Assembly: GCA_947487845.1 (NCBI GenBank)
Contig: CANKYC010000003.1
Span: forward strand, 1 to 32,574
Source of the DNA: Rickettsiales bacterium
Lineage (GTDB): Bacteria > Pseudomonadota > Alphaproteobacteria > Rickettsiales > UBA1997
Direction: 5' to 3'
DNA length: 32,574 nt
The notes beneath the pieces were generated by a model. The model was not told where the DNA came from and searched no databases. It saw only the letters and a program-made list of their open reading frames with translations. Within the stretch, counting starts at the first letter, position 1. Every line of letters starts with the position of its first letter. Shown one piece after another: positions 1 through 5,532 of this stretch. The position numbers and the translations under genes are program-made.

Positions 1-74
1 TGAACATCTTTTTTTTCAAGAGAGCTATTTAAGTGGCTTATATTTGGTGATTAACAACGGTTAATGTTGCTGCT

Positions 75-275
75 TTATTTTCTGTCTAATCTTCTTTCGA
101 GCTCTTTCTTCACATTGGCCATATTGTCGCGGATGTGGTCACAAAAAGACACTATGGCATAAAGCTGCTCATCTGAAAAAGTATGAGCATCTCCGGCAAA
201 ATGTCTTAAATCCGTTGCAAACTTTTCCGCCGAAGCTCGTAAAAAGTAGAATTCAATTTTATTTTCAGCCGACAT
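75..275 (-). CDS. Small hypothetical protein (66 aa, MSAENK...), C-terminal coiled-coil-like segment
   Basis: The ORF track starts at 338, but ATG 275 is preceded by a GAGGAG RBS (gaggagttttATG), and the longer version runs through the 302-344 hairpin. No recognisable domain. Confidence 0.55.
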   Translation of the reverse strand: MSAENKIEFYFLRASAEKFATDLRHFAGDAHTFSDEQLYAIVSFCDHIRDNMANVKKELERRLDRK

Positions 276-301
276 AAAACTCCTCAAAAGATTAAAAATA
301 A

Positions 302-344
302 AAAACCGTGTAGAGCCAGTAAATAGAAGGCTTTGCACGGTTTT
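302..344. terminator. 16-bp imperfect stem-loop with T-runs on both strands; probable terminator or leader structure after the RT
   Basis: aaaaccgtgtagagcc (302-317) pairs with ggctttgcacggtttt (329-344), with two G-U pairs on the + strand. Confidence 0.5.
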
Positions 345-383
345 ATTTTACCTTAAAAAAAGCGTCTAGCAAGCTAATTAGTA

Positions 384-1382
384 TTATTTTTTGGGTATTG
401 CGGCAAACTTACCAACCTCTATCTGCCTAGCTTCGCTTAGGTAACTGTTTAATTTAGCAGTTTCTTCTTTGGTCTTATTTTTTTTATTTTTTAAATCATG
501 AATCTTAAGATGGCTTCTATTTCTGAGTTTTAATTCACCTTTGGGGGTTATGACAATTCCGGTTATTTCTTTATTGTCGCTTGGCTGGTAAACTTTGAAT
601 TTCTTTTTGTTGTAGCTTAGCCCATGATTTACGATGATTTTTTTTGCTTCCTCCGCCACTTTTACGGCATTGTCACCTGATATAATAATATCATCTACCC
701 ACAGAGACATTTTGCATCTATAATTACTGGAAATCTCGTCTATCTCATCAAACATTTTTTTATTGGCATAATATGCCATAACCATGCTTACCGGAGAGCC
801 AGTAGGTAAGTGATTTTTAAATGTTAATATTTGTGCAAAAATCTTGGCTACAGGTGTCCGGCATTTTAAATCTTTTTCAAAAAAGTTGAATATTGACTCA
901 AATGTAACTGATGGGAAAAATCCCTTAAGATCAAGCTTAACTGCATACTTATCGCTATTTTCTAAGTGAAATTTTGCGTTATCTAGACAGCTTCTTCCTT
1001 TAGTTCCGGAGAATAAATATTCTTTTGTTTGGATTGATGAGAGCAAAAAAGATAAGCGTTGATGAATTTTATATAACCCTTCTTTTTTATTTCCCTTTGG
1101 AGTTTGGCATAATCTTTCTTTTACTGCGGCGATAGCAAACTTTTTGCCGTTAGGCATCTCTATCTTTTCTCGAATATTTTTATCATTTAGTTCGGCATAA
1201 TCTTTCACTCTTACCAAACGATAATCTTTGACTGCTGATTCTATGAAATTTTTGTCATTGGAGCTGCTGATTTCTTCAAGAGTTGAAACATTCACTCCAA
1301 GTATTTCAGATAACTTCTTTTTGCTCGGAAGCTTGTAAAAGCAGGACTTTTCTAACGGATATTTTTTATTACTTTTTTTCAT
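384..1382 (-). CDS. Retron-type reverse transcriptase (332 aa, standalone)
   Basis: RT motifs KLDLKGFFPSV, LPTGSPVS and WVDD (YxDD equivalent). Retron region X NAxxH (DNAKFH) and region Y VTG-like (EITG). No group II intron maturase or endonuclease domain. Confidence 0.92.
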   Translation of the reverse strand: MKKSNKKYPLEKSCFYKLPSKKKLSEILGVNVSTLEEISSSNDKNFIESAVKDYRLVRVKDYAELNDKNIREKIEMPNGKKFAIAAVKERLCQTPKGNKKEGLYKIHQRLSFLLSSIQTKEYLFSGTKGRSCLDNAKFHLENSDKYAVKLDLKGFFPSVTFESIFNFFEKDLKCRTPVAKIFAQILTFKNHLPTGSPVSMVMAYYANKKMFDEIDEISSNYRCKMSLWVDDIIISGDNAVKVAEEAKKIIVNHGLSYNKKKFKVYQPSDNKEITGIVITPKGELKLRNRSHLKIHDLKNKKNKTKEETAKLNSYLSEARQIEVGKFAAIPKK

Positions 1383-1668
1383 CTTCTTTACAAATCCAAT
1401 CTAGAAAATCGACAGCGGTTTTGGCTAAAAATAATTTAGCTTTTTTTCTTAAGCCTTTTTTATCCTTATATTCTTCTGCAAACAGCATTATAGACGATAG
1501 AGGTATGTCAAAAACATCGGAGTATTTTTGCAAAACTTCAAGAGTTGGGGTTTTGCTATTTGATTCTATTTCTGAAATGTAAGAGCGGGAAATGCCAAGA
1601 TTTTCTGCTAACTCTAGTTGAGTTTGATGATTAAAGATTCTGATGTGTTTTAGTATTGATCCTAGCAA
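1369..1668 (-). CDS. XRE/Cro-C1 helix-turn-helix protein, retron-associated
   Basis: TQLELAENLGISRSYISEIESNSKTPTLEVL is a typical XRE HTH. TTG start preceded by AAGGA. Overlaps the RT start by 14 nt. Confidence 0.88.
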   Translation of the reverse strand: MLGSILKHIRIFNHQTQLELAENLGISRSYISEIESNSKTPTLEVLQKYSDVFDIPLSSIMLFAEEYKDKKGLRKKAKLFLAKTAVDFLDWICKEDEKK

Positions 1669-1707
1669 TGTTGATGTCCTTAAAATTGTAAAAACGGAGT
1701 AGAAGTT

Positions 1708-1827
1708 TTAACTAAAGAAATCGATGACCTTATTAATCGTATCAACTACTGTAAAAACGATTTTTAAAGTAGTTGGGTTTAATAATTTCTTCCTTAGTGG
1801 CTTTTGTTTTTTTCTATTTTTTGACAT
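1708..1827 (-). CDS. Unannotated 39-aa peptide MSKNRKKQKPLRKKLLNPTTLKIVFTVVDTINKVIDFFS; candidate retron small-protein effector
   Basis: Hand-translated from ATG (1827) to TAA (1708); absent from the ORF track. Lies between the structured RNA and the HTH gene in the same orientation. Very basic N-terminus and hydrophobic/amphipathic C-terminus. Confidence 0.7.
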   Translation of the reverse strand: MSKNRKKQKPLRKKLLNPTTLKIVFTVVDTINKVIDFFS

Positions 1828-2140
1828 AATTTTAAAAATAAAATTATGACACAAAGGTGTGTCGCCCCGACTAAACGAAATGAATCAGTCGCCTCAAAAC
1901 CAACGACATTTCCTTTAGTTACTCTCTAGGACGATCAGACGGTAAAAACAAAAGCCGCTTCCACTCCATTTACCCAGATTCACATTACCACTATAATACC
2001 GATAGCGTAACCTAATATAAATTAGATCTGATTTCCTACACATTGTCTTATGCGCAGAAAGGGAGTTAAGATACTTATTCAGCATCTCGTGAGCAAATGA
2101 ATGCTCAAAAAAACATGAGAGTTATCCGCCTTTCACCTTA
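1828..2140 (-). ncRNA. Putative retron ncRNA (msr-msd) or structured leader; boundaries approximate
   Basis: No ORF in the track. Many stems: 2091-2106, 2070-2086, a long stem 1927-1939/2027-2038 enclosing three hairpins, 1868-1891 and 1848-1863. G-U wobbles favour the - strand. Upstream of a retron RT operon. Confidence 0.65.
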
Positions 2141-2144
2141 CACT

Positions 2145-2172
2145 ATTTTCACCACGATAAAATCTTTGTCAA
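2145..2172 (-). promoter_or_regulatory. Putative sigma70 promoter of the retron operon
   Basis: Perfect TTGACA (2172-2167), 16-nt spacer, then a degenerate -10 (GAAAAT). Confidence 0.45.
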
Positions 2173-2331
2173 TAAAAATGTTGCTGTAAGCGAGGCAATT
2201 ATCCCTTGACATCGTGATTTAGTTAAGGAGAATTAGAGCCGTCCTGACCGACAGTTTTTTTAATCTCAAAATCTAAGCACGAATGTCAAAAGATCCAAAA
2301 ATTCCTCCGCCAGTTAAAGATGATTACGATA

Positions 2332-2889
2332 TTAAGAGCCTATAAATATACTCTTCATAAGCATCAAAAAACTGACTAAGAAGGAAACCGAAATAATCGC
2401 CAAAGCGACATTAATAAATAGCCCTTTAGTGGCGTTTATCTCTTTTGCTTTGGCGATTCTTGTTGAATAAGTTTGCAACTGACAACAAATCAAAAAGCGT
2501 AAATCTCCCTTATTATATTTCGCTTTCAGAAGTTCTTCTGGCGATGTTCCAATTGTAGGAAATTTTTCTGTTTTGTAGGTAATCGATAGAATTGCGAGGG
2601 CAAGACAAAAGCCGCTGATTAACACAATTAAAAGCCCCTGATAAGAAGAATCCCCAAATTTTAAAATTCCAAATAAAGCAGTTAAAGAGGCGGCTAAAAA
2701 AGTTCTTACTAAAGCACTTTTATTATCGAGAGAATCATAATTTGCCGACACAATCCGCATCAACTTTTCGCCCTCTTGCAGAATGAAATTTGCCTTATCT
2801 AAATCTATTTTATCCCAATCAATTTCATCAGGATTTGCAAGTATTTGAGGCTGATTTTTTTTAGTAAAAAATTGTTTTAAAATCTTCAT
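2332..2889 (-). CDS. IS passenger: hypothetical membrane protein with about 3 TM helices
   Basis: Three hydrophobic stretches. Starts 5 nt after the transposase stop and lies inside the TIRs. Confidence 0.75.
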   Translation of the reverse strand: MKILKQFFTKKNQPQILANPDEIDWDKIDLDKANFILQEGEKLMRIVSANYDSLDNKSALVRTFLAASLTALFGILKFGDSSYQGLLIVLISGFCLALAILSITYKTEKFPTIGTSPEELLKAKYNKGDLRFLICCQLQTYSTRIAKAKEINATKGLFINVALAIISVSFLVSFLMLMKSIFIGS

Positions 2890-2894
2890 AAATC

Positions 2895-3785
2895 TTACAA
2901 AATTGTTGCTCCAACCAGCTTATCAAAAATAAACTCGTTGTTGCGGTTGTTATATCTAAACGCAAACTCATTCACATAAAGCTGTAAATGTTTCTTGCTC
3001 ACATGATGATAAATCCCATAAACACCACGCTTCAAGGTTGACCAGAAGCCTTCGATTGAATTTGTGTGAGCGTCAGCACCTTTCTTGTATTCACCTTTTG
3101 AGTGATTAACAACTTGGTGCTGAAATTGACTGTAAAGCCAGTAATAAGCCTTGTGTTCATCTGTCATTATTTGGCTGCCTTTCTTCACATTCTCGTGAAT
3201 TTTAGCCATGATCGTATCGCGCTTTGCATCATCAATTACAAAGGCTCTAACCTCCTTATCTCTTTCAAGCATTCCTAAAACAATCATCTTCTCAAAGATG
3301 CCTTTAGCAGCAACTCTTTCACTCATATGTTTGTTTTCTGCTTTGCCGCCCAAGTAGGTTTCGTCAATCTCAATAATTGTATTCATAAAATCATCGTCAT
3401 CATCTTCTTTCTTCTTTTTATTACCCATCGCAAGACGAATCTGGCGAAGCATACGCCAAGCGGTTTTGTAGGTTACTTCAATTTCTCTTTGAAGCTGCAA
3501 CGCACTAATTCCTTTTTTACCATTTAGAAAAAGGTGAATTGCGTAAAACCATTTGCGAAGGTCTGTGCAAGAGTTTTCAAAAATCGTGTCTTTGAAAATT
3601 GAGAAATCTCTATTGCATTCAGCACATCTAAAAAACTTCATCATTTTTTCGTTTGAGTAAGGATAAGTTTTTAAACTTCCGCAGTGGTTGCAGTGAGGCA
3701 TTTCCTTGCTGTATCTAGTTTTAATGTAATAATCTACTATCGCTTGTTCGGTCGGAAATTTTTTCTGAAATCTTAAAAAATTCAT
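2895..3785 (-). CDS. IS1595-family (ISXO2-like) DDE transposase
   Basis: N-terminal zinc ribbon (CNHC...CAEC), HTH (GISALQLQREIEVTYKTAW), catalytic EIDETY, MTDE and HTNSIEGFWS, C-terminal YVNEFAFRYN. Confidence 0.95.
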   Translation of the reverse strand: MNFLRFQKKFPTEQAIVDYYIKTRYSKEMPHCNHCGSLKTYPYSNEKMMKFFRCAECNRDFSIFKDTIFENSCTDLRKWFYAIHLFLNGKKGISALQLQREIEVTYKTAWRMLRQIRLAMGNKKKKEDDDDDFMNTIIEIDETYLGGKAENKHMSERVAAKGIFEKMIVLGMLERDKEVRAFVIDDAKRDTIMAKIHENVKKGSQIMTDEHKAYYWLYSQFQHQVVNHSKGEYKKGADAHTNSIEGFWSTLKRGVYGIYHHVSKKHLQLYVNEFAFRYNNRNNEFIFDKLVGATIL

Positions 3786-3819
3786 AAAATCTTTTTCGTT
3801 TGGTTTAAGAATTGTGATT

Positions 3820-3848
3820 ATTGTAAAAAGATTGTTTCACGATGTCAA
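3820..3848 (-). promoter_or_regulatory. Transposase promoter with its -35 inside the TIR
   Basis: TTGACA-17 nt-TACAAT, 35 nt upstream of the transposase ATG. Confidence 0.7.
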
Positions 3849-4182
3849 GGGATAATTGCCGTAAGCGACATTTAATTTTCTGCAAGATAGCGATAAGTTC
3901 GTAAATGAGACAAAAATTTTGCTCGTAGAAGTGCTTTGATAAGTTTAGGTGAGACATCACAAAGCCAATGTTTTAGAGGCTAAACTATTTGAGAAAGGTT
4001 AAGCATATTCGGAGAAACGGAGAGATAAATACCGAGAAATTGGCGGAAATTCTGAATTGCGGAGAAGAAGCAGTTAAGGCAAATCAAAAAATACAACCCC
4101 CCTTGATCCCGTAAATACAGGGATTGGAGGGGATATAAAAAATTACAAAAACTGAGCGGAGATAGTTTTTGAGCTGTAGTTA

Positions 4183-4274
4183 TGGCGGAGAAAGAGGGAT
4201 TCGAACCCTCGATACAGTTTTACCCGTATACTTTCTTAGCAGGAAAGTGCCTTCAGCCGCTCGGCCATTTCTCC
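4183..4274 (-). tRNA. tRNA-Ser(GCT)
   Basis: GGAGAAATGGCCGAGCGG...CT-GCT-AA anticodon loop, long variable arm, GGTTCGAATCC T-loop, encoded CCA. Confidence 0.96.
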
Positions 4275-4419
4275 GTGTGATAATTATTTAGCTGTGGAAG
4301 TGAACATAAGAGTGAAAAGCATTTCGTCAACTTTTTTTACGAGTCTATCGCAAATCAAAATTTTCTTAAGAACTTTTTGATTTGCGACAGGCTCTTTTAA
4401 GTAATACGCCAATTAATTT

Positions 4420-5532
4420 TTATCTCTCGGCGTTAATCGTAAATGTGATTTCAATCTCGTCTTTCACGCCATTGGCTTTTTTCGGGTCGCGGTCGCCGAC
4501 CAAAAATGTGCTGCGTTTGATTGTGGTTTTGCCAACTGCGCGGGCTTTGGTTTGGCTATATTCTTCTAAAATAAATTCTACCGGAGTGGCGATGGTTTTG
4601 CCTTTTATAGTTAACATACCATCAGCGCGGAAAGTTTTTTGAGCGCTTAAATTTGTGAAGCGACTGGCGGTAAAAGTAGCTTTTGGAAAGGCTTGAACTG
4701 AAAGCCAAGCTGCGTTTTTTATGGCGTCTAAGGCTTCGTTGAAGGAGGTGTCGATTGAGGTTGTGTCAATATCAATCTGGATTTTGCTTTTGGTCAATTG
4801 GTTTTTGTCAAAATTAATTTTGCCGTCAAATTTTCTGAAAGATCCGGTGATGTTGGAATTTTCTTGAATAGCACGAAATTCTAATTTGCTTTTGGAAGGA
4901 ATGATTTTCCATTCATCAACTGTTGCGGCTGCTGTGTCGTCTTTATAAGGCATATTGCTGCCAGCTACGGCGAAAGTTAATTCAGATTCGATGGCGATTT
5001 TAACTTCGTCAGAAACACCCGGTAAGCCAAAATCCATGCCGAATTGCGAACGTTTGATCGTAGTTGTGGCGCTGAATCCCGCGGTTTTTCTCTGGTTGAT
5101 CGGGTTGAGACCAATCTTGTTTACTTTCACGTTTAAAGTCACTGGTTTGGTGGTTCCAAGCAAAGTCAAATTACCTTGAACTTTGGCGCTGGTTTTGCCG
5201 AATGGCGTAACTGATGTGCTTACAAATTTCGCAGTAGGGAATTTTTCGGTATAGAAAAAATCTTTGCTTTTTAAATGTTCATCAAATTTGGAATTTCCGG
5301 TGGAGATGGAATCAGTTTTGATGATGATTTCAACCAAGCTGTTTTGCGGGCTGGCTTCGTCTAAAGTTAAAGTGCCGTCAACATCGGTGAATTTTCCTGA
5401 TGGGCTAGAAAAGCCAAAATGATTGGCCGACCAGTTGATATTGGTGTGATTGGTGTCGAATTTGTAAATTTCAGTGGCGTGGGCGGAAAAAGTGCAGAAA
5501 AAAATAGCAAGAATCGGGAGGAATTTTTTCAT
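4420..5532 (-). CDS. Secreted tandem YceI-domain (polyisoprenoid-binding) protein
   Basis: Signal peptide followed by two YceI-like repeats (DTNHTNINWSANHFGFS...DEHLKSKDFF...FPTAKF and WKIIPSKSKLEF...AFPKATF...LTIKG). Confidence 0.85.
   Translation of the reverse strand: MKKFLPILAIFFCTFSAHATEIYKFDTNHTNINWSANHFGFSSPSGKFTDVDGTLTLDEASPQNSLVEIIIKTDSISTGNSKFDEHLKSKDFFYTEKFPTAKFVSTSVTPFGKTSAKVQGNLTLLGTTKPVTLNVKVNKIGLNPINQRKTAGFSATTTIKRSQFGMDFGLPGVSDEVKIAIESELTFAVAGSNMPYKDDTAAATVDEWKIIPSKSKLEFRAIQENSNITGSFRKFDGKINFDKNQLTKSKIQIDIDTTSIDTSFNEALDAIKNAAWLSVQAFPKATFTASRFTNLSAQKTFRADGMLTIKGKTIATPVEFILEEYSQTKARAVGKTTIKRSTFLVGDRDPKKANGVKDEIEITFTINAER

Follow-up and report, generated by a model that had tools for sequence, protein, structure and literature searches.

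A 39-codon frame in a Rickettsiales contig probably encodes the SP effector of a Type VI retron and lies within a structured RNA

The DNA analyzed here is a stretch of 32,574 nucleotides (nt) comprising positions 1 to 32,574 of contig CANKYC010000003.1 from a Rickettsiales bacterium (lineage UBA1997; assembly GCA_947487845.1) and is referred to, at its full length, as the window. Its minus strand carries a short operon with a retron reverse transcriptase (RT) gene, a gene for a Cro/C1-type HTH protein, and, upstream of both, a frame of 39 amino acids (aa) that an earlier note on this DNA had singled out as a candidate toxin. This frame very probably encodes SP, the effector of a Type VI retron, and is carried within the hybrid RNA of that retron. 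The genes of the operon and a possible start site for its transcript are as follows.

1708 to 1827, minus strand: probable SP gene, 39 codons plus the TAA stop codon, encoding a basic N-terminus followed by a predicted amphipathic C-terminal helix (residues 18 to 38).
1369 to 1668, minus strand: Cro/C1-type HTH gene, 99 aa, with a TTG start and AAGGA 8 nt upstream, matching HTH_3 and HTH_VI.
384 to 1382, minus strand: retron RT gene, 332 aa, matching RVT_1 and RT_VI.
2145 to 2172, minus strand: promoter-like site, TTGACA and GAAAAT separated by 16 nt, with 10 of 12 matches (a consensus match only).

The RT matches Pfam RVT_1 (1.1e-12) and PADLOC RT_VI (8.5e-70; 233 bits), for which the runner-up is RT_III-A at 3e-32, and D230 and D231, its catalytic pair, are the same in all 21 aligned sequences. 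The HTH protein, which is probably an antitoxin or regulator, matches Pfam HTH_3 (1.5e-13) and PADLOC HTH_VI (2e-33, over profile positions 1 to 91 of 92). The first 14 nt of the RT gene overlap the HTH gene's end, and 39 nt separate the SP stop codon from the HTH start, a distance that is typically 24 to 50 nt in related loci. On the strength of the RT_VI and HTH_VI assignments, the operon is, by its sequence, a Type VI retron with the gene order SP-HTH-RT. Four of the features that define such retrons are found together here: the RT clade, the adjacent Cro/C1 HTH gene, the upstream SP gene, and a structured RNA that contains it.

The SP frame runs from an ATG at 1827 to 1825 to a TAA at 1710 to 1708, and the peptide has a net charge of +8. 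Translation confirmed what the earlier note had read from this frame, namely, 39 residues with lysine or arginine at 8 of the first 14. The listing of open reading frames (ORFs) gives a longer version of 48 aa with a TTG start at 1854. That start was rejected: an in-frame TAG is present in locus L004, which at ~79% DNA identity (78% for the RT) is the sole relative at an intermediate distance among the loci whose DNA was compared, and a 1-nt indel lies between the TTG and the ATG in loci L083 and L084. Because the extension is not conserved in these relatives, the 39-aa ATG form is taken to be the right start.

By itself, an ORF of 39 codons is within chance expectation. The first 8 kb of the window contains 61 ORFs of at least 30 aa, and the whole window contains 696 open frames of at least 25 aa; furthermore, the lysine richness of the peptide is partly a by-product of A-rich DNA. 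No Pfam, PADLOC, or NCBIfam family matched SP, and a search of the ESM Atlas gave only unnamed clusters as top matches (0.84), with TisB as the nearest named match at 0.76, which is chance level. What lies beyond chance is the context of the frame, its conserved position, and its profile match.

The loci used to assess conservation were gathered starting from RT homologues, 21 of which were aligned, and comprise 80 from species-representative genomes, 4 from metagenomes, and 3 from an order-level search (87 in total), plus the window. An HTH match is present upstream of the RT in 70 of these 88 sequences, and 67 of the 70 have an ATG-initiated ORF of at least 25 aa that ends 5 to 90 nt upstream of the HTH gene. 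When the three loci nearly identical to the window (L003, L083, and L084) were dropped, an ATG-initiated ORF of at least 39 aa ended within that interval in 63 of 67 loci, compared with 9 of 66, 15 of 63, and 17 of 62 when, as a control, the interval was moved by 300, 600, and 900 nt, respectively, and with 5 of 67 when the reverse strand was read. Conservation of the ORF upstream of HTH-RT homologues was among the checks that the earlier note had named. With an SP-like ORF in 63 of 67 loci, SP looks near-universal in HTH-bearing Type VI retrons.

Nearly all of these upstream ORFs share a basic stretch followed by a hydrophobic helix, and the window SP has in common with one subfamily a core of the form L-x-[N/R]-P-x-T-[L/W]-[K/R] ahead of that helix. 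A hidden Markov model (HMM) of 57 non-identical SPs, from which the window's own clade was excluded, ranks the window frame first among the 696 open frames (E value, 2.8e-5; 19.4 bits), the next best being at 0.079. Three loci at which the automatic pick was clearly the wrong ORF (L010, L039, and L060) were removed from the input to this model, the pick at L040 and L042 was replaced by a 47-aa ORF, and SPs longer than 70 aa were trimmed to their last 60 residues.

Within the species-representative set, the RT of L003 is 99% identical to that of the window and that of L004 is 78% identical; the next, outside the clade, is at 46%, and the bulk are at 27 to 36%. RT homologues in the protein collection (P0002 to P0012) are 76 to 84% identical. 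A search with the 48-aa version as the query found one SP homologue in total, P0033, which has 39 aa and is 82% identical, with seven substitutions that look conservative. The profile of the SP subfamily matched 78 cluster representatives among 1.84 billion proteins, mostly 46 to 58 aa long. The retron RT was found in 4 of the 400 genomes scored in the order-level search, including the window's own, and in none of the 17 other genomes of the same genus that were searched; the window's assembly is 1.05 Mb in size and 57% complete.

Several Type VI-like loci with no HTH match also keep an SP-like ORF (L005, 1548 to 1715; L006 and L011, each 2778 to 3044; L013, 2810 to 2992). It has the basic stretch and the hydrophobic helix and ends at, or overlaps, the RT start. 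Such loci would be a two-gene SP-RT form.

The region that contains the SP gene is predicted to be highly structured as RNA. Its elements, all on the minus strand, are listed below.

1825 to 1848, minus strand: AUG hairpin, a predicted 10-bp A/U stem with a 4-nt loop and the SP start codon in its 3' arm.
1944 to 1956, minus strand: upstream RNA segment, predicted to form 13 bp with SP codons 6 to 10 (1799 to 1811).
1958 to 1971, minus strand: IR1, the 5' arm of a predicted long-range helix enclosing the SP gene.
1692 to 1705, minus strand: IR2, the 3' arm of the IR1-IR2 helix, beginning 3 nt past the stop codon of SP.
2095 to 2102, minus strand: copy 1 of a direct repeat of 8 nt, ATTCATTT, located within the loop of hairpin 2090 to 2107.
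1878 to 1885, minus strand: copy 2 of the direct repeat, in a hairpin loop 51 to 58 nt upstream of the SP ATG.

The RNA from 2140 to 1669 (472 nt) has a minimum free energy of -136.8 kcal/mol (z score, -6.63), and 0 of 100 shuffled sequences were as stable. A consensus fold based on five sequences (L004 and four that are nearly identical to one another) has 153 pairs, 11 of which are kept through changes on both sides. The AUG hairpin, in which alignment columns 314 to 323 pair with columns 329 to 338, is invariant in all five sequences. For the 13-bp helix over codons 6 to 10 (columns 206 to 218 with 352 to 364), L004 changes a C-G pair to U-A and a U-A pair to U-G. The remaining RNA of the SP ORF folds as an internal hairpin (1711 to 1798). 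The IR1-IR2 helix (columns 191 to 204 with 459 to 472) is 14 bp long, is reached by 0.01 of 200 shuffles, and is partly broken in L004.

The stem of hairpin 2090 to 2107 has two compensatory pairs in L004, where copy 1 of the direct repeat differs at one base. An exact repeat of at least 7 nt whose second copy lies 40 to 62 nt before the SP ATG is present in 36 of 59 loci, compared with 13, 17, 7, and 11 of 59 in four control windows. The sequence of the repeat varies between lineages, and the two copies change together. Rfam returned only a tRNA, plus two sub-threshold matches, for positions 1 to 4500. A terminator-like hairpin with a U-rich tail is also found at 1848 to 1863 (minus strand), directly before the hairpin of the SP start; the RNA contigs described next read through it.

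Contigs that match this region were found in metatranscriptomes. In total, 22 runs contain 0.10 to 0.20 of the sampled words of window positions 384 to 2193. Four of these runs, from four studies, were placed on positions 300 to 2300, and each gave one contig of 420 to 442 nt with at least 99% identity, covering 1699 to 2113, 1701 to 2130, 1701 to 2121, and 1736 to 2121; the unmatched letters at 2121 (two runs) and at 1736 derive from sequencing adapters. The HTH and RT genes yielded no contigs from this population, and positions 493 to 1698 and those above 2130 are uncovered, which is an internal contrast and not proof of silence. The contigs fit a discrete RNA of ~425 nt that starts just past the promoter-like site, contains the SP gene, and ends within IR2, before the ribosome site of the HTH gene, much as is reported for the hybrid RNA of Retron-Vpa2, which is described below. 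Carryover of DNA is a formal alternative as their source, yet not an expected one, as DNA would hardly break off at one recurring pair of positions across four studies. The corresponding feature is as follows.

1699 to 2130, minus strand (strand taken from the promoter and genes): candidate hybrid RNA, ~420 to 430 nt, comprising the noncoding RNA (ncRNA) part and the whole SP gene.

Runs X1 and X4 also gave short contigs that match only positions 1913 to 1974, at 90 to 95% identity, and have unlike flanks. This segment includes IR1 and the stretch predicted to pair near the SP start, and the contigs probably come from related retrons in the same communities.

An AlphaFold2 model of SP based on a 25-sequence alignment (mean pLDDT, 76.8) has a helix at residues 18 to 38 with a pLDDT of ~93, in agreement with the helix-like segment read in the earlier note, and a short helix at residues 11 to 15; residues 1 to 10, in the basic N-terminus, are at 54 and poorly ordered. 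Hydropathy peaks at residues 21 to 35, so the hydrophobic C-terminal helix of SP toxins is present. Over 19 residues, the Kyte-Doolittle mean is at best 1.16, no stretch longer than 7 aa is free of charged residues, and D29, K33, and D36 lie inside the helix. Given this low hydropathy and these charges, SP is predicted to lack a transmembrane segment and to have a strongly amphipathic helix only. The likeness to membrane-active type I toxins that the earlier note had drawn did not withstand this test.

Two retrons described in recent preprints provide a framework for interpreting these results. In Retron-Vpa2 from Vibrio parahaemolyticus, as described by Zhang et al. (bioRxiv 10.1101/2025.10.22.683967), SP has 55 aa and is a toxic effector when expressed alone, its toxicity needs the hydrophobicity of the C-terminal helix, and a hybrid RNA of ~470 nt holds SP together with msr-msd. 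The ribosome-binding site and start codon of that SP lie in stem-loops, and the multicopy single-stranded DNA (msDNA) is required for its translation. Zhang et al. propose that a repeat lets complementary DNA from the first loop pair with the second loop, thus freeing the start codon; the lineage-specific repeats reported above fit this idea. In Retron-Sen3, according to Garcia-Rodriguez et al. (bioRxiv 10.64898/2026.04.27.721009), SP has 79 aa, is toxic and constitutively made, and is neutralized by the HTH protein. An IR1-IR2 helix flanks its gene, the HTH-SP pair functions without the RT or the ncRNA, and the amphipathic helix of SP is modeled as the HTH-binding face. The same preprint describes 18 significantly covarying pairs inside the part of cl2075 retrons that codes for SP and finds SP annotated in just ~27% of the Type VI retrons that have an HTH gene. 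In the accounts given in these two preprints, both SPs are abortive-infection effectors, stop or frameshift mutations in SP abolish toxicity or defense, and tagged SP was detected; both leave the way in which SP kills unexplained.

By analogy with these systems, the window SP would be toxic to its own cell and silent until a phage is sensed, and its release would halt the growth of the infected cell in an abortive infection. The idea of a toxin that acts in infected cells, put forward in the earlier note, is supported by the homology to SPs at other Type VI loci and by the retron context; the type I membrane analogy attached to it is the part that found no support. The lock on the window copy may be mainly translational, as in Vpa2. 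There appears to be no Shine-Dalgarno motif to use, the AUG would be buried in its 10-bp hairpin, codons 6 to 10 would be paired with the upstream segment, and the IR1-IR2 helix would close the whole domain. Reverse-transcribed DNA from the 5' hairpins could open this lock, perhaps via the 8-nt repeat in the two loops, and the HTH protein could form a second layer that restrains the RT, binds SP, or does both. Repression in cis via the surrounding RNA, via the HTH protein, or via both is more likely than repression by an antisense RNA.

A number of observations weigh against assigning the frame to a functional SP that is locked within its own RNA. The window SP is shorter than the other SPs recovered, which have ~45 to 80 aa where the ORF pick is clear, and is the shortest among those recovered here. 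Its model has a single long helix and a second one of 5 residues, and thus appears to differ from the two-helix core described for the Sen3 and Vpa2 SPs. Inspection by eye revealed no Shine-Dalgarno-like motif before the SP ATG. In L004, codons 26 and 27 of the SP frame (L004, 2533 to 2628) are separated by an additional base, which yields a 31-aa product without the helix. Codons compared between the window and L004 differ by 5 synonymous and 9 nonsynonymous changes, with no clear sign of purifying selection, and since the ORF is heavily base paired, the protein cannot be taken as the sole cause of the sequence conservation seen within the clade. As for the RNA, the compensatory pairs derive from essentially one divergent sequence, and helices of the IR1-IR2 type beat shuffles at 0.05 in only 2 of 59 loci (the window and L064). 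That test, which took the longest ungapped helix with G-U pairs allowed between 33 nt around the SP stop and 310 nt upstream, has low power and says nothing on other lineages. The repeat copies of the window are ~215 nt apart, compared with ~60 to 80 nt in many other loci, and a repeat of 8 nt in RNA rich in A/T is, taken alone, weak evidence. Finally, the RNA contigs give no strand, level, or true ends.

The lesion in L004 may be either a recent one, representing a disarmed toxin, or an error of low-coverage assembly; the coverage of that contig, taken from its name, is 5.8x. Read in its own shifted frame, the tail of the L004 SP reaches the same stop and retains 6 of its 13 residues, which fits both explanations. 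The HTH and RT genes of L004 are intact, and the -35 element and most of the -10 element of the promoter-like site are conserved there.

With regard to how SP is held in check, a Vpa2-like translational lock is modestly favored over purely Sen3-like control, and both may coexist. That SP is made constitutively and neutralized after translation by the HTH protein, with the RNA as a scaffold and not a lock, is less probable, if by no means far-fetched. It would agree with the IR1-IR2 layout common to the window and the Sen3 lineage, with the independence of the Sen3 HTH-SP pair from RT and ncRNA in the published description, and with a structural model of the window SP bound to the HTH protein. 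That model reached an ipSAE of 0.46 (0.50, 0.46, and 0.44 in separate runs), compared with 0.00 for the best of three controls, with a partner pLDDT of at least 66 and agreement of the three runs in at least 96% of contacts. However, this pass is rated as weak support. In calibration, 58 of 80 solved complexes attained the ipSAE mark, as did 2 of 110 mismatched pairs, but only 7 of those 80 complexes, along with both mismatches, attained it with values of 0.60 or below; a weak pass would thus be more often wrong than right unless the pairing is likely beforehand. Furthermore, the window SP, with 39 aa compared with 79 aa, lacks the C-terminal extension and the N-terminal helix of the modeled Sen3 interface, and the hairpin at the AUG, the lack of a Shine-Dalgarno motif, and the predicted pairing over codons 6 to 10 resemble a translational lock.

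A further alternative concerns solely how SP kills. Cationic amphipathic peptides often act on membranes, and a peptide with a charge of +8 and an 18-residue amphipathic helix (hydrophobic moment, 0.58) could act as a type I-like toxin that depolarizes the cell. The dependence of Vpa2 SP toxicity on the hydrophobicity of the C-terminal helix, as described for that system, points the same way. We regard this mode of killing as unlikely, because SP lacks a predicted transmembrane segment, the amphipathic helix of Sen3 is modeled as a face for binding HTH, and both preprints, in what they say on the matter, state that the toxic mechanism of SP is unknown. There was also no sign of an antisense RNA gene, although no dedicated test was run and the contigs are strandless; the predicted pairing partner lies in cis.

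It is very improbable that the frame is untranslated and open only as part of a structured scaffold whose RNA is the functional product: the pairing of almost the whole ORF (codons 6 to 10 with the upstream segment and the rest within hairpin 1711 to 1798), the AUG in a hairpin with no Shine-Dalgarno motif, the L004 frameshift, and the covarying pairs described for cl2075 would all suit such a scaffold, but the frame is open in 63 of 67 loci, between which the DNA has diverged beyond alignment (5 to 17 of 62 to 67 in controls), the basic stretch, the N/R-P-x-T motif, and the hydrophobic helix persist despite sequence change, the SP profile matches at 2.8e-5, the SPs of Vpa2 and Sen3 are reported to be detectable as tagged proteins and to lose toxicity or defense through stop or frameshift mutations, and the shifted L004 tail retains its stop and 6 of 13 residues on a thinly covered contig.

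The preferred reading of an SP effector carried in a hybrid RNA can be extended, tentatively and with considerable doubt, to a more specific form. In this form, a minimal SP of 39 aa and charge +8, without an N-terminal domain or a Shine-Dalgarno motif, would be gated purely by RNA through three locks (the AUG hairpin, the codon 6 to 10 helix, and the IR1-IR2 clamp). It would lie inside a discrete RNA of ~425 nt that is stable enough in uncultured freshwater bacteria to assemble alone, unlike the HTH-RT message, in metatranscriptomes that are independent of one another. If so, the contigs would be the first in situ sight of a retron hybrid RNA, and the peptide would be a very compact form of the toxin, a cationic amphipathic peptide whose target might be membranes or nucleic acids. 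To judge from the RNA contigs, the hybrid RNA seems to accumulate in natural populations, and the shortest SP seen narrows what the toxin needs in order to work. Neither the short SP nor the accumulation of RNA changes the general picture published in 2025 and 2026. The SP effector is a gene that gene callers and family libraries miss, and here it was found from sequence alone.

The surroundings of the operon include several other features. An IS1595-family insertion sequence of 1667 bp (2194 to 3860) lies 21 nt upstream of the -35 hexamer of the retron. It has 23-bp terminal inverted repeats, is flanked by an 8-bp target duplication at 2186 to 2193 and 3861 to 3868, and carries a transposase gene (2895 to 3785; DDE_Tnp_IS1595, 1.5e-41) and an ORF of 185 aa without a family (2332 to 2889) that by eye resembles a membrane protein. 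The near-identical loci L003, L083, and L084 lack this element, of which the window's assembly contains a single copy. A tRNA-Ser (gct) gene is found at 4183 to 4274 (minus strand), and if the insertion sequence is disregarded, ~330 nt would separate this gene from the retron promoter downstream; this proximity makes the retron look like a tRNA-adjacent accessory island. Downstream of the RT, a family-less ORF at 75 to 338 (minus strand; 87 aa from a GTG) is 97% conserved in L083. L003 diverges from the window from about position 250, which indicates that the context downstream of the retron varies between near-identical copies.

Like the type I toxins TisB and Hok, SP is a small cationic or hydrophobic peptide whose translation would be blocked at the RNA level; unlike them, it has no predicted transmembrane helix, and the blocking RNA would be the 5' part of the same transcript. 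The operon shares with the Type VI retrons of Mestre et al. 2020 (PMC7736814), as they are defined there, a clade-3 RT, a Cro/C1 HTH protein of 91 to 110 aa (99 aa in the window), and a small auxiliary protein with no known domain. However, the small auxiliary proteins given for clusters 2075_1, 2760_1, and 3272_1 in that work have 75 to 79 aa, about twice the size of the window SP, which at 39 aa probably falls outside the named clusters cl2075, cl2760, cl3272, and cl3897.

As in Sen3 and cl2075 retrons, a predicted IR1-IR2 helix flanks the SP gene of the window, with IR2 just past the stop codon, and the HTH gene follows directly downstream. The Sen3 SP differs in its 79 aa, its N-terminal extension of ~25 residues, and its long amphipathic tail; Sen3 control is posttranslational, with SP constitutive, and the hosts of Sen3 and cl2075 are Beta- and Gammaproteobacteria. 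The resemblance to Vpa2, which was judged by published description and not by sequence identity, extends to the order SP-HTH-RT, the placement of the SP gene inside one RNA that is structured and enriched (~470 nt in Vpa2 and ~425 nt in the window), the start codon in a stem, pairing of the 3' end with the 5' domain, two loops that carry direct repeats, and an SP with a hydrophobic C-terminal helix. The window differs from Vpa2 in its SP of 39 rather than 55 aa, in that no Shine-Dalgarno motif was seen, in the extra 13-bp helix over codons 6 to 10, and in the spacing of the repeats. This kind of system is already known from the preprints of October 2025 and April 2026, and the window copy is an unannotated representative of it, belonging to a divergent lineage.

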